DNA from: Squalus acanthias
Taxonomy: Eukaryota
DNA length: 64,000 nucleotides
Reading direction: 5' to 3'
Assembly (NCBI GenBank): GCA_030390025.1
Contig: JASTWF010000034.1
Span: 4,402,001 to 4,466,000 of the forward strand
The notes beneath the pieces were generated by a model. The model saw only the letters and a list, made by a program, of their open reading frames with translations. It ran no database searches and was not told the DNA's origin. The translations under genes and the position numbers were made by a program. Each line of letters opens with the position of its first letter. Within the stretch, counting starts at the first letter, position 1. Of this stretch, positions 22,590 to 51,035 are shown one piece after another.

Positions 22590-25217
22590 AATATGTACTC
22601 TACACCTGGGAATACATTTACAGTGATGTGTTAATTTAGACATGATACCCTCTACACTGGGGAATAAAGTTAGAGTTAATTGTTAATTTGACATGATGCC
22701 CTCTACATCGGAGACTAAAGATACATGTTAATTGTTAATTTGACATGATACCCTCTACACCGGAGAATACAGTTAGAGTTAATTGTTAATTTGACATGAT
22801 GCCCTCGACAGTGTTGAATAAAGTTACAGTTAATTGCTAATTTAGACATGATTCCTTCTACTCCAGGGAATGACGTTAAAGTAAATTCTTAATTTAGAAA
22901 TGATTCCCTCTACACCGGGGAATTGAAATTACAGTTAATTGTTAATTTGACATGATGCCCTCTACACCGCGGAATAACGTTGACGTTAATTTTGTATTTG
23001 ATATGTTATCCCCAACAGCACGGAATAATTTTACAGTTAATTGTTAACGTAAACATCAGAAACTCCACACCGGGGAATAAAGTTACAGTTAATTGTTAAT
23101 TTGCCATGATATACTCTACACCTTGGAATTAAAATTACAATTATTAGTTAATTTGACATGATGCCCTCTACACCGGGGAATAAAGTTTCAGTTATTTGCT
23201 AATTTAGACATGATATCTTCGACACCGGGAAATAAAGTTACAGTTCATTTTTAATTTGTCATGATAACCTCTACACTGGGGAATAACGTTAGAGTTGATT
23301 GTGAATATGACATGAGACCCTTTAGACTGGAGAATACTGTTTCAGTCCATTGTTTATAAGATTTCTTATCCTCTAAGCTGGGGAAAACAGTTACAGTTGA
23401 TTGTTAATTTGACATGATACCCTCTACACCGGGGGAAAAATTTACAGATAAATTTTAAATTGACATGATTGCCTCTGCACCGGGGAATAAAGTTAAAGTG
23501 AATTGTTAATTTAGACATGGTTCCCTCTACACCGGGGAATGAAGTTAAAGTTAATTGTTAATTTGACATGATGCCCTCTACAACGGGACTAAAGTTACAG
23601 TTAATTGTTAATTTAGAAATCATTCCCTCTTAACCAGGGAATAAAGTTACAGTTCTTTGTTAATTTTACACGATAAACTCTACACCAGTGAATGAATTTG
23701 CAGTTAATTGTTAATTTCGACATGATACCCTCTACAACGGGAAACAAAGTTACAGTTAATTGATAATTTGACATGATACCCTCTACAAAGGGAAATTAAA
23801 ATTACAGTTAATTGTTAATTTCGACATGATGTCCTCTACACCGGGGGATAAAGTTAGAGTTAATTGCTAATTTAGACATGATACCCTCTACAACGGGAAA
23901 TTAAACTTACAGTTAATTGTTTATTTGACATGATGCCCTCTTCACCTGGGTATAAAGTTACAGTAAATTGTTAATATAGATATGATATCCTATACACCAG
24001 GGAATAATGTTACAGTTAATTGTTAACTAAAACATCATACCCTCCACACCGGGGAATGTAGTTACAGTTAATTGATAATTTTGACTTGATGCTCTCTACA
24101 CCGGGGAATAAAGTTACATTTAATTGTTAAGTTATACAAGATGCCTTCTACAACGGGAAATAAAGTTACAGTTAATTGTTAATTTAGACATGATACCCTC
24201 TAAGCCGGGGTATAAAGTTACAATTAATTTTTAATTTGACATGATGCCCTCTACACCGGGAATAAAGTTACAGTTTATGGTTAATGTAGAAATGATTCCC
24301 TCTACACCGGGTAATTAAAATTACAGTTAATTGTTAATTTGACATGATGTCCTCTACACCGGGGAATAAAGTTATAGGTAATTGTTAACTTAGACATGAT
24401 GCCCTCTGCACTGGCGAATAAAGTAACTGTTAATTGTTAATTTGACATGATGCCCTCTACACCGGGGAATAAATTAACTGATAATTGTTAACTTAGACAT
24501 GATGCCTTCTGCACAGGGAATAAAGTTACAGTAAATTGTTAATTTAGACATGAGAACCTCCACCGGGAAATAAAGTAACAGTTAATTATTAATTTGACAT
24601 GATGCCCTCTACACCAGGGAACAAAGTTACAGTTAATTATTAATTTGACATGATGCCTTCTACACCTGGGAATAAATTTACATTGAATTTTTAATTTAGA
24701 CATGATTCGCTGTACACTGGGGATTAAAGTAACAGTTAATTGTTAATTTCGACATAATACCATCTACCCTGGCGAATTAAAATTACAGTTAATTGTTAAT
24801 TTGACATGCTGTCCTCTACACCGGGGAATAAAGTTACAGTTAATTTTAATTTGACATGATACCCTCTACAACGGGAAATTACAATTACAGTTAATTGTTA
24901 ATATGACATGATGTCCTCTACACCGGGGAATAAAGTTGCAGTTCATTTTGTATTTGTTATATTACCCTCTACACCAGGGAATAATTTTACAATTAATTGT
25001 TAATGTAAACATCAAACCCTCTCCACCGGGAATAAAGTTACAGTAAATTGTTAATTTAAGCATGATACCCTCTACAAGGAGGAAAAATGTTACAGATAAA
25101 TGTTAATTTGACATGATTGTCTCTGCACCAGGGAATAAAGTTAACGTGAATTGTTAATTTAGACATGATTCCCTCTATTCCGCAGAATTAAGTTACAGTT
25201 AATTGTTAATTTGACAT

Positions 25218-25801
25218 TGTTGATAAAAAATGAATTCACTTGAGTCTCTCTCAAAGCAGAAGATCACAGTTTATTTAACAGAGCGCATTGGGAGAAGAGC
25301 CATAGACCCCGCGGTCTAGTAATCAACTTCTCGTCGTTACAGTGGTATCAGAACTTGATTTAGACATTATAGAGCCGGATACGCAATTCATTACATACAA
25401 ATGTCTCCACCAAATCACATTCCCCTAGCAACAAGCCCCTTACCCAATCATATATCTCCACCACTGACTTAATTATAATCTGCACTATAAGCTAAATTTT
25501 CTTGTTACTTCTCTTCCGAAACTGTAAACATACAGAGTGTTGCGCCACATTTGCTTGGCCGGACTGGCTAGTCATGCGGTGATTGATTCTCAATTGTAAC
25601 CGTTGGGCTTTTATCGTAGTCGTTTGTTCCTTATTGGTGGGCTTCAGCTATCTCGCACGTACGCATGTTGACAGTAGACATTACTCATCACACTGTATCA
25701 GAGAAGCCATCTGTCTTGTCTTATTTACGAGTTCACCTTTTACAGCACGTTCTTTAAATCTTTACGTTGCTTCTTTAAGCCCTATAATTTACACCCTAAC
25801 A
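25218..25801 (-). repeat. ERV 3' LTR (584 bp)
   Basis: The minus strand begins TGTTAGGG and ends TCAACA, with AATAAA near 25270. It is directly preceded by a purine-rich tract and is homologous to 31020-31386. Confidence 0.9.
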
Positions 25802-25819
25802 GTCCCTCCTGTTGGTCCC
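25802..25819 (-). other. Polypurine tract
   Basis: Minus strand reads GGGACCAACAGGAGGGAC immediately 5' of the LTR TG. Confidence 0.7.
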
Positions 25820-25995
25820 TGATCAAAACTCTTTTCTGACAGGGAACCAGCATCATGCGGATTTCTGGTAATGTAAGTCGATCTTTGATACAGCATTTGG
25901 CAGTACTTCTTAGTATTCTGGCCTGATGTTCTGTATGTTTACATTCCAGGGGCTCACAGTCCGTTAGTCAGACTGTGGCATCCTTGTATACGGAC

Positions 25996-27146
25996 TCATA
26001 TCCACACATTTCTCTCTCCAGGTGTCAATTGGTTAACCATCATGACACTTACAGCATGCCATGACATTTGAGCGCAACAACATTTTAACAATAGGACCAG
26101 ACCATACATCACTAATATTATAACAAAGAACAAAATCAATCCTTGTACTACTGATGTCCCGAGTGATCCCAACCATCCAGTTGCCCAGCCCCAAAGGGTG
26201 GATGCTGGAGGTTGTTTTAATTTTTTTTACTTCTTCCTGTATGCGTGATGCCAAGTCAGTTATTGCTTCCGAGTTGTCTGGTATGTAGGTGCAGCATTCT
26301 GTACCTATTAGGGCACAGGTTCCCCCTTTTACTGCCAACACATAGTCAAGGGCCATCCGATTTTGTAGAGCTACTGTGCGGAGGTTTGCCATGTCTGCAT
26401 TAACCTTAACTAGGGCTTCAGTAGTATCGTTGGCCACCTGCTGCAAGACGGGGGCCAGGTGAATGGATTCCCTTGCCAATTTACCAGCTCCATAGCAGGA
26501 TAACGCAATTGCCCAGAATCTTTCAGTCTCCGTGATGGCTCGTCTGGCTCTCCCGTGGAGGTCCTTCAGTGAACCCATGTGATATATGTAGCGTTCAACA
26601 TAAGCCAGATAACAAGAACGCGTCCATTCTCGGGGCAACCAGGATAGGCCCTATGACCGCACACGAAATGAGTCCCGTTGTAGGGGGTATACTTATTTAC
26701 CTCTGGGGGGTCCGATTGTACCTCGTTCTCAGGAACGGTGGTAGATAGGAAGCGTTATATATTGACTGTGTTCACCCACTACAATATTCTGAGTTGTACC
26801 CATGACGTTGGAGCTTTGCCATAGTGATGCCGTCTGTCTTGGCTTCATAACAGCCCTCACTTGTGCATCCTGCTCTAACTCCAAACATCTAACTGACCGT
26901 CTCATCATCACTATGTGGGATTGGTTGTAGGGGGACTCCGTCCTCCGAGTGCGTGGGGACATGGGCGCAGACCCAACAGCTGGCAACATCAACTCTCTTG
27001 GCATATGTGTATGACATATATAAAAAGGTGTTCACCCATAACCCTGTTTTGGCCCATGGGTGCACTCTAGCCTGAGTCCTCCCGAGGCTACATATTATGA
27101 TTATACAAACAAGAAAACTACACATGATATTGCGTAACACGTTCAT
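25996..27146 (-). pseudogene. env: Gamma-type retroviral envelope, disrupted and short in SU
   Basis: Signal peptide plus CWVC (26889-27146). Furin site RARR, immunosuppressive domain LQNRMALD and CX6CC (CALIGTECC) in 26033-26638. After a frameshift near the T-run at ~26221-26228, the TM anchor GLILFFVIILVMYGLVLLL and KCCC tail follow. Confidence 0.92.
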
Positions 27147-27250
27147 CTTATCACTTTATGTTAACAATGTCCCAAAGGCTATATCGCCAACCGAACCGCT
27201 TTGTTGCTTGTAGATTTTATTTTCCTGTGGGGGTGAATAGAATACGGTCA

Positions 27251-27484
27251 TTAGGCTGGTTCCTCGATCATAATCAATTGGATTCCCTCCTCCTGCTCGA
27301 CCGATTGGAGTCGATGGGATTGTTCCCATACATACTTCACGATACATCCCATGGCGTATCCCATTATGACAATGCATATTGTCCATACCAACGTTCGTAC
27401 CAGCACCCACTTCCATTCTTTGTATTGTCTATCGTATTCTTCACTTCCCACAAAAGGTACTTGCTCTGGTGTAGCCCCCATCAA
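27251..27484 (-). CDS. Putative small single-pass membrane accessory ORF between pol and env
   Basis: 77 aa ORF on the proviral sense strand with a hydrophobic segment (WVLVRTLVWTICIVIMGYAMGCIV) flanked by charged residues. No recognisable homolog. Confidence 0.35.
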   Translation of the reverse strand: MMGATPEQVPFVGSEEYDRQYKEWKWVLVRTLVWTICIVIMGYAMGCIVKYVWEQSHRLQSVEQEEGIQLIMIEEPA

Positions 27485-27962
27485 GAGGGAGAAGGAAGAT
27501 CCCAGAGTCTATGTACCGGCACTGTTAGGGGGCAGGCAGTGCGATATGTCTGTAGACACGGGAGCTTCTGTATCCATTACCGATTTACCCCTTCCCCTCA
27601 CCAAACAAAGGATAGACATAGTGGGGTTAGGAGGGGAGCGTTTACATGCATTTAAAAGTGAGGTACAAGTATTGGAATTAGCGGGACAACTATTACCCGC
27701 ACAATTTTATGTATGCCCAAACAGTGAGGGGACTATCTTAGGAATAGATTTGTTAAAAGAATTTAATTTGTTAATAGATTCACGACAAGGAAAGTTAACC
27801 TGGGTACAGGGAGACGGGAACAAAGTAAACTGGGGAAAGCCACTTTGCCATTTGGCAACAGTAGGAAGTGCAAAAATCGTGGCCCGGGACGGGAAGGAGG
27901 AAGGAGACTTTGGGAATATATGCAAGGCAATGAAGTCAGTATGGACGACCTCAAAACAGGAC
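27474..27962 (+). pseudogene. pro: Retroviral aspartic protease plus start of RT (inverted relative to gag and env)
   Basis: VDTGAS catalytic motif, IVGLGG flap and ILGIDLL. Ends at SVWTTSKQD, the typical RT N-terminal W...D position. Confidence 0.9.
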
Positions 27963-28820
27963 GACCCATTAAGATACAGATGGCCCACCAACAACGGCCG
28001 AGGGGCCCATGGGAAATTATACAAATAGACTTTATCGGACCACTCCCCACGTCAAGGGGTAAGAAGTATTGCCTGTTAATAATAGACCAGTTTACTAGGT
28101 GGGTCGAGGCATTCCCAACCCGGAACTGTACTGCCACCACCATGGCACGAATAATGGCAGAGGAAATAATTCCCAGGTGGGGAATACCGATCCAAATTGA
28201 CTCAGATCAGGGAACTCACTTTACGGGAGCAGTAGTGAAGAATGTATGCAAGTGGATGGGCATAAGCAGAAATTCCATATTCCGTACAATCCCCAAAGTT
28301 CTGGAATGATGGAACGAATGAACCAAACCTTGAAAACAGCCTTAGCCTAGGCTTTAGGGGACAAACATTGGGTAGATATGTTACCAGCACTCTTATGAAA
28401 CTAAAAGCCACTCCAAACCGAACAACGGGCTTATCACCATATGAGCAAATGACGGGGAGGGCAATGCAACTCTCCCATGGCATAATAACTGGAGGAGAGA
28501 ATGTGGGTCCTCTAAAGGATAGGCTCCGAAGGTATGTCCTCGAATTAAGCAGTTAATTAAAGGAAATGAGGCAGCAAACGTGGGACAGACACGAAGAAAA
28601 GGATAAGGATTTAGAATTGACCGCGTTCCCATATATCCCTCCAGCCGGGACTAAGTTAATATTTAAAGGTTTACCAGGGAATCCCGAGCTTGCCCCAAAA
28701 TGGTCAGGACCATATCGGATTTTACTTAGTGGAGATACGTGTGCTTGCATTGATATGAAGGGCATGGGACGATGGAAGCACTGGACACAGCTAAAAGTCT
28801 ATGACCCTTCGCCAGCTTAA
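27957..28820 (+). pseudogene. pol: Retroviral integrase core and C-terminal domain, lacking the HHCC zinc finger (inverted relative to gag and env)
   Basis: PWEIIQIDFIGPLP, IIDQFTRWVEAFP, IDSDQGTHF, PYNPQSSGMMERMN (after a frameshift), TGLSPYE and PKWSGPY (GPY/F), with internal stops. Confidence 0.92.
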
Positions 28821-28836
28821 ATAGGGCCGCAGCTAG

Positions 28837-30529
28837 TCAGTGGTCGCCAACATGTTCCTTTACATACTGCAGGAACTTTTGATACATATCAATGGTCCCG
28901 GTCTGGTTTGGCTCTTCCTTTTTTGTCCAACACCTCTCGGTTGAATGTCCCGGTCTTCCGCAATTGGGGGCCCTACATTCTTTTGCCATATGACCCAACT
29001 TCCCACAGTTAAAACATGCCCCTTTCTTTCTTTGCGACAGTTCCCGTATCCCTGCGGCCCCTACTCTTTCTTGTTTTATTACTAGTGTTTGTCTCGCCTC
29101 TTTGGCATCTATCTGACACGCCCACTGGACCGCCGCATCATATGTATTCGCCGGCACTATTCCCATTTTTAATATCGCTTGGTGGGATTGGGACAACCCG
29201 TCCTTAAACATTTGAATAAAGGGCTGGTCTGTCATCTGGGGATTTGCTTGTCCCGATGATTCCTGGTATACGACGAACAGTCGTTCGCCATAATAACTAC
29301 TGCTTTCCCCTTTCCGCTGTTTTATTATCATTATAAGTCCCCAATTTGGTGAGGATCCTCCTAAGGCTGCCTGGACCGCTGCTTTAAAGGGGTTGTAGCC
29401 CGCGAGTTGGGCCGCCTTGTCCGCAATTAAGGCGATACGGCTGGTACAGCCACTGTCTCGGTGACCGTTTTGGTTATCCACCTCCCTCCATTTGTCAGCC
29501 GGGCATTTAGCCCGTACCAGCTGGGGGATATCCCGAGGATGGAGGTCGTGGATATCCCACATCTCCTCGAGATTTCTCCAAAATTCTCCATTTGTGCTAC
29601 GGGGCTTGAATGTTCCCAAACCTTTCAATATTGTTTGTGATTCTAAGTGGCTAAAAGCTTTGTACTTGGCTGTGGTATTCTGTACCGTTCCCTTTCTTTT
29701 TAAAGGGGCTGCCTTGACTACGTTTGGGTTCTTTCTGTGTAATTTCCTAATATCTATTTCTTCCACCTGTGCACTGGCTACGTTTTCTTCAACCATTTCT
29801 TGTTCAAGAGCTTACTGTGCTGCAAATATCAGCGGCATGGTTCCCTCTTTGTTCCTGATTTTGTATTTTCTGGTGCGCCTTTATTTTTATTACTGCTGCT
29901 AGTGTTGGAGCCTTTGCAGCTTCAAAGAGCGCCTCTACCCTCCGCTATTAATGCAAAATTTGGTATGTACCTCCGACTGTTATTAAAGAGTCCTAACACT
30001 TTTCTGACCTCACCTTACCGAGACGGGTCTTGGCATCTCTTGGATCGCCTTCCGTCGGTCTTGTGCCATGGTCCTTACCCCCTTGGACATTTGTTGTCCC
30101 AAATATGTGACCGTAGTCTGCCCAATTTGTGCCTTTTTCGGGTTTACTTTGAACTCTCCTGTTTCTAGGGCTTGCAGAACCACCACCAGGGCGGCAGCAT
30201 GCCCTCTGCTGTCTTCTGATGCTATCAACATATCATCTATATATTGTAACTCTTGTTCTAATTCAAGAATTATTTTATTTTTACTTGCAAGTCTAGTGTG
30301 GAGTCGCTGCACCTTGTTCGTTAATGCAACAAATTGGTTTACTAGTATTACCCTCGCCTTTTTCGTCTTTTTCTGTTATTGACCCTCTACCACTCTCTTT
30401 TACCTTCGGATTCTGGAGCGGATCCCACCCCTCCTTCGTCATCTTATCAACTAAACCCTTCCGGTCGTCTGCATAGATCCTAGTAAGGGACCCCATTGGG
30501 CCCCATTCTATTTGTTTCCCCGACGCCAT
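28837..30529 (-). pseudogene. gag: gag, interrupted by a 507 bp pol-derived insert
   Basis: N-terminus MASGKQIEWGP at 30529. Capsid MHR-like IKQRKGESSSYYGERLF. Zn knuckle CFNCGKLGHMAKEC and a second partial knuckle NCGRPGHSTERC. TGA stop at 28837-28839. Confidence 0.9.
29738..30249 (-). pseudogene. pol: RT (YIDD to thumb) fused to RNase H C-terminal fragment, embedded in gag
   Basis: LQYIDDMLIAS..FKVNPKKAQ..VTYLG..KVLGLFNNSRRYIPNFALIAE (RT), then ALFEAAKAPTLAAVIKIKAHQK..EQRGNHAAD (RNase H H-loop and GN.AD). Confidence 0.88.
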
Positions 30530-30999
30530 TTGCAGTCCAACTTACAGTCTTACCTGGTGCTGAGTTCCTCTACTCGGGCTTGTTCTTGATACTTTAAAGA
30601 CCTTCAATTTGTTAATCAGTCACAACACATATATATATTTGCTGACTGCACGATCCCAGGTTGCTTTGGAGCCTCTACGCTTACTTGATCCTGACCATCA
30701 CGTGGGACTACGTCCTCTTAATTCAGGCTCAGGCTAGGTGTTTGAAACAGGCACCCTCCTTGTCCGTGTCTTTCCATCACTCACTCATTCCTTTGCGACA
30801 TTTATCACTACACAGTGTTCCCTTTAGGACTTGCGATCCACACCCTAACAATTGTGTTCTCCTACCTCTCACAGACCTTACTTGATTCGTGATGCTACGG
30901 CACTGTCACTCCACCTTTCCAGGTGACTCAATTTCTGGACGGTCAAAATTGACTTCTCGTCCGAGTTCACTGGTGCGGGCGGTCTTTCAGGTCCAGAGC

Positions 31000-31017
31000 A
31001 TCCTGCCGACTACGCCA
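31000..31017 (-). other. Primer binding site complementary to tRNA-Ser
   Basis: Plus strand ATCCTGCCGACTACGCCA equals the 3' 18 nt of vertebrate tRNA-Ser(AGA/TGA) and lies 2 nt from the 5' LTR end. Confidence 0.88.
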
Positions 31018-31019
31018 AT

Positions 31020-31386
31020 TATTGGTGAACAATGAATTCACTCTAGTCTGTCTCAAAGCAGAGGATCACAGTTTATTTAACAGAGCATTCTGGGAGAAGA
31101 GCCATAGACCCCGAGGTCCAGTAATCAACTTCTCGTTGTTACAGTGGTATCGGAACTTCTTTTATACATTATAGGTTTGGGTATGCAATTCATTGCATAC
31201 AAATGTCTTCACCCAATCACATTCCCCCAGCAACAAGGTCCTTAATTATAATCTGCACTTTAAGCTATATTTTATTGTTACTTCCCTTCCAAAACAATAA
31301 ACATATGGAGTGTTGCGTCACATCTGTCTGGCCAGACTGGCTAGTCATGCGGTGATTGTTTCTGAAGTGTAACTGTTGTGCTATTA
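31020..31386 (-). repeat. ERV 5' LTR, truncated in U3
   Basis: Aligns to 25218-~25613 with many substitutions and a ~30 bp deletion. Homology stops before the LTR start. Confidence 0.88.
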
Positions 31387-31409
31387 TTGCCATGGCATAG
31401 GAGTTTATT

Positions 31410-31910
31410 CAAGTGCGGGGAGTCAAAAGGACTTTGATAGTGGTCGGCGACTGTATAGTCAGTGGGATAGATACTGTTCTCTGCAGCCACGGGCGAGAGT
31501 TCCGAAGGTTGTGCTGCCTGCCCGGTTCCAGGGTTAAAGATATCTCCTGGCAGCTGGAGAAGAATTTGGATTGGGAGAGGGAGGATCCAGTTGCAGTGGC
31601 CCATGTAGGAACCAAAGACGAGGAATGATGCTGTTTGGGGAGCTAGGATCCAAATTAAAAAGCAGATCCTCAAAAGTAATAATCTCTTGATTAATAGCTA
31701 GGCCACGCACAAATTGGCACAGGGACAAACAGATCAGATGATTTAAATGCGTGGCTAAAAGTGTGGTGTGGAAGAAAGGGATTTGATTCATTTGGCACTG
31801 GCGCCAGTACTGGGGAAAGAGGGAACTGTTCTGTTGGGACGGTCTCCACTTAAACCGGGCTGGGACCAGTGTCCTGGGAAATGGAATAACTAGGGCTGTA
31901 GGTAGGGTTT
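31410..31910 (+). mobile_element. CR1 LINE ORF1 fragment (SGNH esterase-like)
   Basis: IVVGDCIVSGID..CCLPGSRVKDI..VAHVGTKD, with downstream DGLHLN; degenerate. Confidence 0.8.
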
Positions 31911-32349
31911 GGAACTACAAAGGGTGGAAGTGTCAGGTGAGGGGAAATTTAGAAATCTAAAGAGACACGTCAAGACAATGGAGCAGTGTAGTCATTTGGG
32001 TAATTACAAGCAGAGAATACAGATCACAATATTTATCTTCTCTGCATCTACAGAATGCTTAGTTCCCATGTGCAAAGGCGAGAAAAACTCGGAGTAGACT
32101 CGGTTTGCTGTCCCTCCACCCGTAGGATTCGCAAAGCTTTCCCTGTGTAGGTCGGGCGGAGCATATGTGACCACAACATGCAAGAACTTTGTAATGGCAG
32201 GGAAGGAGGGGTAGTGGCCTAACGGTGCCTCCCAGGTTAGGATTCTCTCGGTGTGGACCATTGCTAAGGATGCACGAGGAAGCGTCAGTAACCCTTGTGG
32301 CTGCTCCCCTCACATCGGGGGTACTGTGATGGACTGGAAGCAAAGTGAA

Positions 32350-38012: not shown

Positions 38013-38890
38013 ACTCCCAGGGCAGATACAGCCCGGGTTAGATACAGAGTAACGCTCCCTCTACACTGGCCCATCAAACACTCCAAGGGCAGATACAGCC
38101 CAGGTAAGATACAGAGTAAAGCTCCCTCTACACTGTCCCATCAAATACTCCCAGGGCAGTTACAGCTCGGGATAGTTACAGAGTAACGCTCCCTCTACAC
38201 TGTCCCATCAAACACTCCCAGGGAGGTACAGCACGGGTTAGATACAGAGTAAAGCTCCCTCTACACTGTCCCATCAAACACTCCCAGGGCAGGTACAGCA
38301 CGGGTTAGATACAGAGTAAAGCTCACTCTACATTGTTCCATCGAATACTCCCAGGGCAGTTACAGCCCGGATTAGACACAGAGTAACGCTCCCTCTACAC
38401 TGTCCCATCAAACACTCCCAGGGAGGTACAGCACGGGATTAGATACAGGGTAAAGCTCCCTCTACACTGTCCAATCAATTACTCCCAGAGCAGTTACATC
38501 ACGGGTTAGATGAAGACTAAAGCTCGCTCTACACTGTCCCATTAAACATTGCCAAGGTAGGAACAGCATGTGTTAGATACAGAGTAAAGCTCCATCTGCA
38601 CAGTCCCATCAAACACTCCCAGGGCAGGTACAGCACGGGTTAGATGCAGAATAATGGTCCCTCTCCACTATCCCATCAAACGCTCCCAGGGCAGGTGCAG
38701 CACGGGTTAGATAGAGAGTAAAGCTCCCGCTACATTGCCTGATCAAACATACCCAGGGCAGTTACAGCACGAGTTAGATACAGAGTAAACCTCCCTCTAC
38801 ACTATCTCCTCAAACACTCCCAGGGCAGGTACAGCACGGGTTAGATACAGAGTAAAGATCCCTCTACACTGTCCCATCAAACACTCCCAG

Positions 38891-41800
38891 GGCAGGTTCA
38901 GCACGGTTTACATACAGAGTAATGCTTCCTCTGCAATGTCGCATCCAACACTCCCAGTGTAGGTATAGCACGGGTAGATACAGAGTAAAGAACCCTCTGC
39001 ACTGTCCTTTCAAATACTCCCGAGTAAAGAACAGCACTGGTTCGATTCCGAGCAAAGATCCGTCTGCACAGTCTCATCAAACAATTCCAGTGCTGAAACA
39101 GCACGGATTAGATACAGAGTAAAGCTCCCGCTACACAGTTCCATCAAAGAAACCCAGGTATAGGGAGCAAGGGTTTGATACAGAGTAAAGATCCCTCTGC
39201 ACTCTCCCATCAAACACTCCTAGGGCAGATACAGCACGGATTAGTTACAGTGTAAGCTCCCTCTGCACTGTCCCATCAAACAATCCTAGGGCAGTTACAG
39301 AACGGGTTGGGTAAAGAATAAAGCTCTCTCTTCACTGTCCCATCAAACACACCTAGGGCAGGTACAGCACGGGTTAGATAACGAATAAAGCTCTCCCTTC
39401 ACTGTCCATTCAGACAGTCCCTAGTCACGAACAGCACGGGTTAGATTCATAGTTAAGATTGTCTGCACAGTCCCATCAAACACTTCCATTGCAGGAACAG
39501 CACGGGGAAGATACAGAGTAAAGCTCCTTCTAAATTGTCCCATCAAACAATCCTAGGGCAGGTACCGCACGGGTTTGATACAGAGCAAAGTTCCCCCTGG
39601 GCTATCGCATCAAACACATCCAGGTATAGACAGCACTGGTCAGACTCAGAGTAAAGCTCCCTCGACACTGTCCCATCAAACACTCCATGGGTAGGTACAG
39701 CACGGGTTAGATACAGAGTAAAGCTCCCTCTACACTGCACCGTCAAACATTGCCAGGGTAGGAACAGCACGGGTTAGATACAGAGTAAAGCTCCCTCTAC
39801 ACTGTCCCATCAGACTCTCCCAGGACAGGTACTGCACGGGTTAGATACAGAAAACAGCTACCTCGACACTGTCCCTCCAACACTCCCAAGGCAGGTACTG
39901 CACGGGTTAAGTACAGAGTAAAGCTCCTACCACAGTGTAGAGGGAGCTTTACTCTGTATTTAACCCATGCTTTAACTGCCCTGAGAGTGTTTGATGGGAT
40001 AGTGTAGCGTCTACACTATCCCATCAAACACTCCCAGGGCAGACAAAGCATCGGTTAGATACAGAGTAAAGCTCCCTCTACATTATCCCATCAAACACTC
40101 CCAGGGCTGATACAGCACCAGGTTAGATACCGAGTAAAGCTCCCTCTACACTGTCCCATCAAACACTCCTAGGGCAGATACAGCACGGGTTAGATACAGA
40201 GTAAATCTCCCTCCACACTGTCCCATCAAACACTCCTAGGGCAGATACAGCACGGATTAGATACAGAGTAAAGAACCCTCTACACTGTCCCATCAAACAC
40301 TTCTAGGGCAGATACAGCACAAGTTAAACACAGAGTAAAGCTCGCTCTACACAGTCCCCATCATGCACTTCGAGGGCAGGTACAGCACGGGTTAGATACC
40401 GAGTAAAGCTCCCTCTACACTGTCCCATCAAACACTCGGAGGGCAGGTACAGCACGGGTTAGATACAGAGTAAAGCTCCCTCTACACTGTCCCGACACAC
40501 ACTCCCAGGGCAGGTAAAGCACGTGTTTGATACAGAGTAAAGCTCCCCCTACATTGTCCCATCAAACACTCGCAGAGAAGGTACAGCACTGGTTAGATAC
40601 AGTATAAAGCTCCCTCTACACTGTCCCATCAAACACTCGGAGGGCAGGTTCAGCACGGTTTACATACAGAGTAATGCTTCCTCTGCTCTGTCGCATCCAA
40701 CACTCCCAGTGTAGGGATAGCACGGGTAGATACAGAGTAAAGATCCCTCTGCACTGTCCTTTCAAATACTCCCGAGTAAAGAACAGCGCTGGTTCGATTC
40801 AGAGCAAAGATCCGTCTGCACAGTCTCATCAAACAATTCCAGTGCTGAAACAGCACGGATTAGATACAGAGTAAAGCTCCCGCTACACAGTTCCATCAAA
40901 GAAACCCAGGTATAGGGAGCAAGGGTTTGATACAGAGTAAAGATCCCTCTGCACTCTCCCATCAAACACTCCTAGGGCAGATACAGCACGGATTAGTTAC
41001 AGTGTAAGCTCCCTCTGCACTGTCCCATCAAACAATCCTAGGGCAGTTACAGAACGGGTTGGGTAAAGAATAAAGCTCTCTCTTCACTGTCCCATCAAAA
41101 ACACCTAGGGCAGGTACAGCACGGGTTAGATAACGAATAAAGCTCTCCCTTCACTGTCCCATCAGACAGTCCCTAGTCACGAACAGCACGGGTTAGATTC
41201 ATAGTTAAGATTGTCTGCACAGTCCCATCAAACACTTCCATTGCAGGAACAGCACGGGGAAGATACAGAGTAAAGCTCCTTCTAAATTGTCCCATCAAAC
41301 AATCCTAGGGCAGGTACCGCACGGGTTTGATACAGAGCAAAGTTCCCCCTGGGCTATCGCATCAATCACATCCAGGTATGGACAGCACTGGTCAGACTCA
41401 GAGTAAAGCTCCCTCGACACTGTCCCATCAAACACTCCATGGGTAGGTACAGCACGGGTTAGATACAGAGTAAAGCTCCCTCTACACTGCACCGTCAAAC
41501 ATTGCCAGGGTAGGAACAGCACGGGTTAGATACAGAGTAAAGCTCCCTCTACACTGTCCCATCAGACTCTCCCAGGACAGGTACTGCACGGGTTAGATAC
41601 AGAAAACAGCTGCCTCGACACTGTCCCATCCAACACTCCCAAGGCAGGTACTGCACGGGTTAAGTACAGAGTAAAGCTCCTACCACAGTGTAGAGGGAGC
41701 TTTACTCTGTATTTAACCCATGCTTTAACTGCCCTGAGAGTGTTTGATGGGATAGTGTAGCGTCTACACTATCCCATCAAACACTCCCAGGGCAGATAAA

Positions 41801-42401
41801 GCATCGGTTAGATACAGAGTAAAGCTCCCTCTACATTATCCCATCAAACACTCCCAGGGCTGATACAGCACCAGGTTAGATACCGAGTAAAGCTCCCTCT
41901 ACACGGTCCCATCAAACACTCCTAGGGCAGATACAGCACGGGTTAGATACAGAGTAAATCTCCCTCCACACTGTCCCATCAAACACTCCTAGGGCAGATA
42001 CAGCACGGATTAGATACAGAGTAAAGAACCCTCTACACTGTCCCATCAAACACTTCTAGGGCAGATACAGCACAAGTTAAACACAGAGTAAAGCTCGCTC
42101 TACACAGTCCCCATCATGCACTTCGAGGGCAGGTACAGCACGGGTTAGATACCGAGTAAAGCTCCCTCTACACTGTCCCATCAAACACTCGGAGGGCAGG
42201 TACAGCACGGGTTAGATACAGAGTAAAGCTCCCTCTACACTGTCCCGACACACACTCCCAGGGCAGGTAAAGCACGTGTTTGATACAGAGTAAAGCTCCC
42301 CCTACATTGTCCCATCAAACACTCGCAGAGAAGGTACAGCACTGGTTAGATACAGTATAAAGCTCCCTCTACACTGTCCCATCAAACACTCGGAGGGCAG
42401 G
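38891..42401. repeat. ~1752 bp near-identical tandem duplication within the 67 bp satellite
   Basis: Matching ORF pairs at offset 1752 (38898/40650, 39010/40762, 39543/41295), with shared inverted units. Confidence 0.9.
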
Positions 42402-43062
42402 TACAGCACGGGTAAGATACAGAGTAAAGCTCTCTCTACACTGTCCCATCAAACATTCCCAGGGCAGGTAAAGCTCGGGCTAGATAGAGAGTAAAGGTCC
42501 CTCTACACTCTCCCATCAAATACTCCCTAGTCATGAACAGCACGGGAGAGATTCATGGTAAAGTTTGCCTGCACAGTCCTATCAAACACTTCCATTGCAG
42601 GAACAGCACGAGTTAGATACAGAATAAAGCTCCCTCTGCACTCTCCCATCAAACACTTCCAGGGCAGGTAAAGCACGAGTTAGAAACAGAGTAAAGCTTC
42701 CCTCTACACTATCCCATCAAACACTCCCTGGGCAGGTGCAGCACTATTTAAATACAGAGTAAAGCTCCCTCTACACTGTCTCATCAAAAACTCCAGTGCA
42801 GGTACAGAACGGGTTACATATGTAGTAAAGCTCCCTCTGCAATGTCCCATCAAACACTCCCAGGGCAGGTATAGCTCGGGTTAGATACAGATTGAAGCTC
42901 CCTCTACACTGTCCCATCAAACACTCCCAGGGCAGGTACAGCACGGGTTAGATACAGAGTAAAGATTTCCTGCACAGTCCCATCAAGCACTTCCATTGCA
43001 GGAACAGCACGGGTTAGATACAGGGTGAAGCTCCCGCTCCGCTGTCCCATAAAATCACACCT

Positions 43063-43247
43063 CGGCAGATAGTCAGGATGATTTAATTTAGTTGTCTGCA
43101 ATTGTAAGGTACACATGCATTGTTCTCTATCTATATATGCTTTGGCGATTCTGTATCTTTTTACTTCACCCGACGAAGGAGAAGTAAGCTCCGAAAGCTT
43201 GTCATTTCAAATAAAACTGTTGGACTATAACCGGGTGTTGTTCGACC
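43063..43247 (+). mobile_element. Penelope-like element terminal fragment with degenerate hammerhead motif
   Basis: CCCGACGA-A-GGAG-aagtaag-CTCC-GAAA-GCTTGT followed by AATAAA and CTGTTGGACTATAACC. Confidence 0.7.
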
Positions 43248-44637
43248 TCATAAAATACTCCCAGGGGAGCTACAGTTCGGTTTAGATACTGAGTAAACTC
43301 CCTCTACACTCTCCCATCAAATACTCCCTAGTCAGGAACAGCACGGGTTAGATTCATAGTAAAGATTTCCTGCACAGTCCCATCAAGCACTTCCATTGCA
43401 GGAACAGCACGGGTTAGATACAGAGTTAAGCTCCCTCTACACTGTTCCATCAAACACTCCCAGGGCAGGTACAGCACGTGTTAGGTACAGAGTAAGCTCC
43501 TTTTGCATTGCCTGATCAACCACAACCAGGGCAGGTAGAGCACGAGTAAGAAACAGAGTAAAATTCCATTTACAGTGCCCCACCAAACATTCCCAGGGCA
43601 TGCACAGTCCGGGTTAGAAACTCAGTAAAGCTCCCTCTGCACTGTCCCATCAAACACACCCAGGTATAGACAGCACGGGTTAGATACAGAGTAAAGCTCC
43701 CTCTGTACTCTTCCATCAAACAATCCCAAGGCAGGTACAGCACGGGTTAGATAGAGAGTAAAGCTTCCTCCACCCTGCCCCATCAAACATTCCCAGTATA
43801 GAGACAGCACGGGTTAGATACAGAGCAAAGCTCCCTCCACCCTGCCCCATCAAACATTACCAGTATAGAGACAACACGGGTTAGATACAGAGTAAAGCTC
43901 CCTCTACACTGCCCCATCAAGCACTCGCAGGGCAGCTACAGCACGGGTTAGATACAGAGTAAAGCTCCCTCTATACTATCCCATCAAACACTCCCAGGAC
44001 AGGTACAGCACGGGTTTGATTCACAGTAAAGCTCCCTTTGCACTGTCATATAAAATACTCGCTAGTCAAGAACAGCACGGGTTAGATTCAGTGTAAATTC
44101 CGTCTGCACAGACTCATCAAACACTTTCAGTGCAGGAACAGCACCGGTTAGATCCAGACTAAAACTTTCTCTACAATGTCGCCATTAAACACTCCCAGGG
44201 CAGGTACAGCATGGGTTCGATACAGAGTGAATCTCCCTCTACACTGTCCCACCAAACAGTCCCGGGCCAGGTACAGCACGGGTTAGATACAGAGTAAAGA
44301 TTGCTCTACACTGTCCCATCAAACACTCCCAGGGCAGGTGCAGCACGGGCTAGATACAGAGTAGAGCTCCCTTTGCATTGTCCCATCAAACTCTCCAAGG
44401 GCAGGTACAACACAAGTTAAATACAGAGTAAAACTCCCTTTGCATTGTCCCATCAAACTTTCCAAGGGCAGGTACAACAGAAGTTAAATACAGAGTAAAA
44501 CTCCCTTTACACTGTCCCATCTAAGACACCCAGGGCAGGTGCAGCACGGGTTAGATACAGAGTAAAGCTATCTCTACACTGTCCCATCAAACACTCCCAG
44601 GGCCGGTACAGCATGGGTTAGATACAGAGTAAAGCTC

Positions 44638-50650: not shown

Positions 50651-51035
50651 GGTATTAGAAGGGAAGGATTTGCAGACAAGAAACTCAAACCAAACCGTGG
50701 GAATGTGGAGACTGTGAGAAGGGATTCAATTATCCATCTGAAATGCAAATTCATCAGCGCAGTCGCATTGGGAAGAGACTGTTCACCATCTTCGTATGTG
50801 GGAAGGGATTCAGTCGGTCATCCATGCTGCTGAAACACCAGCGAGTTCACACTGACGAGAGACTGTTCAGTTGCTTTCACTGTGGGAAGAGATTCAGTCA
50901 TTCCACCTAATTGAACACCAGCATGTTCACAGTGGAGAGAATCAGTTCACCTGCTCCGTGTGTGCGAAGGGATTCACAAGTTCATCCAGTCTGCTGAAAC
51001 ACCAGCAGATTCACTCTGACAGCAGACCTTTTAAA
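50651..51035 (+). pseudogene. C2H2 zinc-finger gene exon remnant (about 4 degenerate fingers)
   Basis: Acceptor TTTTACAG at 50650. [56 protein letters not shown] and [23 protein letters not shown], with frameshifts and lost Cys/His residues. Confidence 0.85.

Follow-up and report, generated by a model that had tools for sequence, protein, structure and literature searches.

Organization of the provirus

The window, that is, the whole 64,000-nt stretch of DNA analysed, contains a provirus of Retroviridae type at 25217-31389, with two LTRs, a primer-binding site (PBS) and a polypurine tract (PPT), beside a 52-bp satellite. The features of the provirus and of its left flank are as follows.

3765-25217, no strand: array of the 52-bp satellite, about 350 copies, forming the left flank of the provirus and common to the twin locus described below
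25217-25801, minus: 3' LTR, 585 nt, with TG...CA ends and AATAAA at about 25270-25275
25802-25815 (approximate), minus: polypurine-tract-like stretch adjoining the 3' LTR, recognized from sequence
25816-27473, minus: env, with a gamma-type TM, in at least five frame pieces
27474-28827, plus: inverted block of 1354 bp with protease, RT stub and integrase, the integrase with frameshifts and a stop
27474-27495, plus: left arm of an in-register inverted similarity, whose outermost 3 bp are the ancestral microhomology
27957-27961, plus: pol deletion junction common to family copies, with about 2.2 kb (RT, RNase H and integrase N-terminus) absent and a 5-bp microhomology
28806-28827, plus: right arm of the inverted similarity, 14 of 22 positions matching in the un-inverted twin, with base 28824 private
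28837-29734, minus: 3' part of gag with a CCHC knuckle, a UGA stop at 28837-28839 and a 24-nt deletion at 28963
29724-29946, minus: C-terminal half of RNase H with linker, derived from pol and moved into gag, recognized by comparison with longer copies
29941-30249, minus: RT palm piece (YxDD) of pol origin, now within gag and sharing the reading frame of the N-terminal part of gag; junction in 68 copies
30247-30999, minus: leader and 5' part of gag (start codon not placed), from ORFs and comparison of copies
31000-31017, minus: PBS, with 460 exact matches in the genome
31020-31389, minus: 5' LTR, truncated (outer U3 gone), with TATAAAA retained at 31160-31166

On the minus strand, Pfam recognized TLV_coat in the ORF at 26036-26650 (E 1.1e-8), the zf-CCHC of gag in the ORF at 28840-29811 (E 1.2e-6) and RVT_1 in an RT fragment upstream of gag (E 1.6e-9), the last of which was absent from the initial annotation. 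The env TM carries what we take to be an immunosuppressive-domain-like stretch and a CX6CC motif, and the PBS is presumably that of tRNA-Ser. Only 370 of 585 nt are left in the 5' LTR, which ends at 31389, and because its outer end is missing the target-site duplication cannot be read. A search of Rfam over 25000-32000 gave no matches. The usual env start codon lies inside the inverted block. By chance, the inversion brings in another ATG (27474-27481, minus strand) that shares its frame with the first piece of env (ORF 27251-27508), downstream of which env is frameshifted.

The inverted block and its junctions

The initial annotation had placed the LTRs, PBS, gag, env and PPT on the minus strand and the protease and integrase on the plus strand, and ORFs, Pfam and LTR comparison agree on this arrangement. 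Plus-strand matches were obtained to the RVP protease at 27474-28025 (E 4.7e-5), to rve at 27767-28306 (E 6.9e-14) and, weakly and under the curated cut-off, to MLVIN_C at 28557-28817 (E 8.6e-4). The ends of the block, proposed at 27474 and 28827, which are 4429474 and 4430827 on contig C2671, are where matches to the family break. On the left, all 39 non-self matches on the protease side begin at 27471-27476 (query 222-227), alongside one env-only piece; on the right, all 39 non-self matches stop at 28827. In these searches of the 3.7-Gb assembly with junction DNA, the best 40 of 573 and the best 40 of 471 candidates were scored, and among the scored matches only the window itself crosses either inverted junction. 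Compared with natural copies, the junctions are reciprocal, with zero bases lost at either, and the right break lies a short way past the point where env begins. The integrase stop (28818-28820) was correctly placed 7 nt from the right break, and the gag stop lies 9 nt from it. The inversion is confirmed as real in the assembly.

Three finer claims of the annotation were upheld in part. The inverted GCCC/GGGC microhomology at the two ends is ancestral for 3 bp; its fourth position is mismatched in all 31 natural copies that have both ends, and base 28824 is therefore private to the window copy. The reading frame predicted to run from the gag stop into the protease is that of natural copies, and the motif given departs from them at one base that is private to the window; the natural copies settle the parental arrangement. 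Lastly, the block does bracket pol, both ends being within 10 nt of its borders, but this pol is incomplete, with about 2.2 kb missing at 27957-27961.

Copy number and the colinear family

Each inverted junction is matched once in the 3.7-Gb assembly at up to 2 mismatches, compared with 101 matches to the colinear gag/protease junction. The count of copies with the same junctions at independent loci, which had been suggested as a check, thus returned the window only. Among 40 fetched loci, 33 were colinear for all four probes, seven were partial and none was of mixed orientation; 20 of the 40 had been picked from colinear gag/protease matches, and among those 20 a left-junction inversion was not possible. 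Across the family the gag, pro, pol and env domains are colinear. Twenty public runs, seven of them probably RNA, were matched by shared words (best share 0.39), and four of the twenty were aligned to the region. Colinear joints are present in contigs of three of these four (X1, X2 and X11), and one 1796-nt contig goes from gag into protease and integrase. In none of the pieces listed from the four runs are the window's own junctions spanned on a single strand. Letters private to the window locus are replaced throughout in these runs, whose contigs drop rare variants and which are probably without the locus, so that they speak neither for nor against its junctions.

In the longer copies (L016, L019, L020 and L021), pol is longer by about 2.2 kb. 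From this extra stretch come two pieces that, in the window and numerous other copies, are found within gag, and microhomologies of 3-5 bp are present at all four deletion and relocation junctions. The pol deletion junction has 62 matches and the gag/RT-piece junction 68, on many contigs, with the window and its twin included; seven datable copies have LTRs diverged by 0.9-11%. This is a propagated, non-autonomous RT-less lineage in sense orientation, which is presumably helper-dependent. RT template switching, a process that gives 'deletion with insertion', is the likely origin of the lineage; the literature search found no paper with that phrase. With its 60-plus copies carrying RT and RNase H pieces in gag, the RT-less lineage is the better-supported side result of this analysis.

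A second subfamily (L040-L047 and L058) has other pol deletions and a more divergent 5' part of env (77-92% to the window). The window LTRs (25217-25801 and 31020-31389) differ by 13.8% and those of the twin by 11.0%, the family median being 2.8%; the LTR pair of the window and twin is possibly a recombinant of two subfamilies. LTR-based dating of the window copy was rejected, since LTR values so far above the family median do not fit a pol divergence of 4-5%.

An un-inverted twin and the timing of the inversion

On the contig of the window, 221 kb upstream and in the same orientation, lies a twin locus (L015) that is not inverted; its counterpart of the block is at C2671:4208398-4209751. It agrees with the window in its satellite flank, in the truncation of the 5' LTR and in the flank on the right. 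The duplicated segment (window 21.5-47.3 kb against C2671:4203251-4226573) is 26 kb long or more, with an identity of about 93-98%, and the junction of the 5' LTR with its flank occurs exactly twice in the genome, both times on contig C2671. The window block differs from that of L015 at 16 of 1352 bases (1.2%), compared with 4.1-4.9% for nine other loci. The window differs from the majority base of the column at 47 positions; L015 has 37 of these variants as well, 10 are private and at most four are found in any other single locus. Because 37 of the 47 rare variants are common to the window and L015, the latter was not converted from another locus. The insertion is the same, L015 is colinear and the two have private variants in common; therefore, the flip occurred in chromosomal DNA after integration. 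The inversion postdates integration and affects one of two duplicates. Should the duplication be a haplotype left uncollapsed, the pair would be alleles, which leaves the post-integration timing unchanged. The locus is an ordinary but unusually well-polarised structural variant, in which the twin keeps the pre-inversion state, so that both the timing and the mechanism at the junctions are directly readable. Divergence between the window and L015 is 1.2-1.6% inside the provirus and 2.0-2.8% in the LTRs and flanks, the lower value inside the provirus being perhaps due to gene conversion.

The initial annotation had offered two readings, a one-off microhomology-mediated inversion of a colinear parent or a non-autonomous lineage propagated with antisense pol. 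The junction counts and the un-inverted duplicate back the one-off event. A non-autonomous lineage does exist, with junctions common to 62 and 68 copies, but it carries sense pol, whereas the inverted junctions were found once each and the twin of this insertion has the colinear order; within this assembly, propagation with antisense pol is refuted by the single copy of each junction and by the timing of the inversion, and it is extremely improbable. As little can be said for an inversion during reverse transcription with later correction of the twin by gene conversion. Internal inversions are a recognized class of defective proviruses in the available text of PMC10842655, some HIV proviruses being examples, and the lower divergence from the twin inside the provirus could hint at conversion. 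However, the twin's block has 37 of the window's 47 rare variants and no other examined locus fits as donor, making this origin scarcely credible.

An assembly artefact would mean that the contig, which is unplaced and rich in satellite, carries two near-identical duplicates and that the block was given the wrong orientation in one of them. In its favour are the singleton status of the junctions, their duplicated and repeat-rich surroundings and the fact that they are known from the assembly alone. Against it, the two junctions are reciprocal and base-exact, unlike a chimeric read. In addition, the perfect inverted repeat is just 3-4 bp, too short to mislead the graph if the assembly was built from long reads. 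The 10 block variants private to the window copy also mean that the block is not simply that of the twin. Given the exact reciprocal junctions and the private variants, misassembly is unlikely.

Probable mechanism of the inversion

Microhomology at the join is 3 bp in the ancestral state and 4 bp in the window copy, at or above the 2-bp minimum for microhomology. From the breakpoints inward, the ends of the twin's block match at 14 of 22 positions in inverted register. This 22-nt similarity was measured after the fact, and 63 of 20,000 random breakpoint pairs had inverted similarity as good under a null that allows for the choice of window. Counted from the join, 14 of 22 amounts to 64%, short of the 70% that PMC6902434 asks for microhomeology, and a match of 10 of 13 is reached only from 9 nt inward. 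The ends nevertheless resemble an arrangement that the same source describes for template switching, an imperfect match with microhomology on one side; unique inversions are also often end-joining products (PMC7702065). Microhomology-guided repair or replication template switching is the likely cause here, and plain end joining at the 3-bp match fits equally. Very probably, the window holds one defective member of a high-copy family of RT-deleted ERVs. The pol remnant of this member was flipped in host DNA after integration, a short inverted similarity at the two ends being the likely guide of the repair or template switch.

The events may be ordered as follows. A lineage with the 2.2-kb pol deletion and two pol pieces in gag spread to at least 60 loci in normal orientation, as its junction counts show. 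It may have been copied by borrowed enzymes, the 3-5 bp junction microhomologies arising from RT template switches. One insertion beside the satellite then became part of a duplication spanning 26 kb or more, and, as the polarity shows, just one of the duplicates is inverted. The 3-bp microhomology and the 14/22 in-register inverted similarity probably aligned the two ends, and the private fourth base could be either a by-product of the event or its trigger. The resulting copy would be inert, and its fit to the borders of pol would be mostly coincidence.

Small unique inversions formed by NHEJ/MMEJ or MMBIR, as described in the portions available of PMC7702065 and PMC6902434, are likewise balanced and non-recurrent, with short junction microhomology and adjacent imperfect similarity. 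Those inversions are much larger human events; the present one lies wholly within a provirus, has its ends near gene borders and shows a similarity of 64%, under the 70% mark. The available text of PMC10842655 reports four HIV sequences with a large deletion plus an internal inversion, and such defective proviruses, like the window copy, combine a deletion with an internally inverted segment. The HIV inversions are somatic, with no mechanism given in that text, whereas that in the window is in the germ line and postdates integration. A literature search by title and abstract found nothing on a pol-bracketing inversion in a provirus, which does not establish its absence from print. The rearrangement adds one more case to a known class, and most likely reflects one accident of DNA repair rather than an unfamiliar type of virus.

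Position of the ends at the borders of pol

Under uniform chance, the probability that both ends fall within 10 nt of the borders of pol is 2.5e-5, or 3.2e-4 for any two boundaries. The microhomology does not explain where the breaks lie, and the border fit is only partly explained. Selection of the case probably accounts for most of it, as a scan of very many repeat-rich windows would be expected to turn up such examples.

Alternatively, the 22 nt at either end of pol could pair with each other over long range in the family RNA or single-stranded DNA, with a function in, for example, gag-pol readthrough or env splicing, and the inversion would be a footprint of that pairing. The similarity of the arms is family-wide (12-15 of 22 in all 31 copies with both ends), the duplex energy is -18.9 against -8.6 +/- 3.7, with 1.3% of 3000 random pairs as low, and the coincidence with the borders of pol is otherwise without explanation. 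However, no two-sided compensatory change was found in the 31 copies, and the left arm hardly varies. Conservation is expected in any case, since the two arms lie in coding sequence. Some copies fall to -10 kcal/mol, and since each +/-10 nt box offers about 40 diagonals, one this good is probably not rare. Nor was a second inversion at the same sites found among the scored matches and the 40 fetched loci. Functional pairing is accordingly very unlikely, and the repair accident set out above is preferred.

Prospects for antisense silencing

An LTR transcript of the window copy was predicted by the initial annotation to be a plausible silencing or piRNA-type trigger. In its strongest form, the idea is that a dead provirus became a self-promoted 'killer' allele, in which the TATA-bearing 5' LTR would drive 1.35 kb of antisense pol RNA, seeding small RNAs against a still-inserting family, with the twin as a built-in control; there is a slim chance of this. 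Antisense insertions serve as piRNA triggers, and Mu killer in maize is a silencing locus. As for promoter state, TATAAAA is kept in the 5' LTR, the outer U3 is lost, and AATAAA is kept in the 3' LTR. LTRs less than 1% apart were found in 5 of 23 datable copies; the age of these is close to that of the window-twin split (1.2-1.6% in the provirus) or lower, so that targets may have existed. Exact matches to the 21-mers of the block occur in 39 other loci (median 22% per locus, maximum 42%). With its TATA box kept and young relatives present, silencing by the window copy is possible as far as sequence features go.

A balanced inversion, however, forms no hairpin. In known cases, a host transcript is opposed by a whole element in antisense, or a hairpin arises from an inverted duplication, whereas the window has a balanced inversion and a predicted transcript. 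One copy in a satellite would also be expected to add little to the antisense RNA from hundreds of intronic or read-through copies. Antisense ERV transcripts have been proposed as a defence in the available text of PMC6139349, for example HERV-K(C4), and the predicted LTR transcript of the window copy would likewise be antisense, in this case to pol. Most likely, the window copy is inert. Should antisense small RNAs arise from the locus, an internal inversion alone would make an ERV-silencing allele in a vertebrate, with no insertion into a piRNA cluster.

Family placement and minor observations

The RT of a longer copy gave its best PDB matches to foamy RT (147 bits) and MLV-type RT (129 bits), and reached 69% to ERV proteins of fish, amphibians and sharks. 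A quick RT tree of 39 rows, in which no named reference virus was placed, grouped it weakly with proteins of minnow, horn shark and Astyanax (SH-aLRT 83-86). By RT similarity the family is nearest to fish and shark ERV proteins, and it may be an epsilon-like (clade Mu) or snakehead-like (clade Huo) ERV. The epsilon-like and snakehead-like ERVs of fish and sharks have the same gag-pro-pol-env order in the accessible parts of PMC4422223 and PMC6001957; here, in contrast, RT pieces are relocated into gag. The amplification of an RT-less derivative is a feature in common with other non-autonomous deleted ERVs.

An in-frame UGA at the gag/pro border is reported for SSSV, ZFERV and a frog ERV in excerpts of PMC13517186, as in the window family. 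In most copies examined, the UGA at the end of gag (28834-28839, minus strand) is followed by CUA, which is the type II readthrough context of alphaviruses; UGA-CUA was not found among the retroviral contexts in those excerpts.

Elsewhere in the window, a 67-bp array at 38013-44637 has one short motif in common with the 52-bp satellite. In addition, three copies of an 84-bp unit lie at 50774-51020, with a period equal, at the DNA level only, to that of C2H2 zinc-finger repeats.
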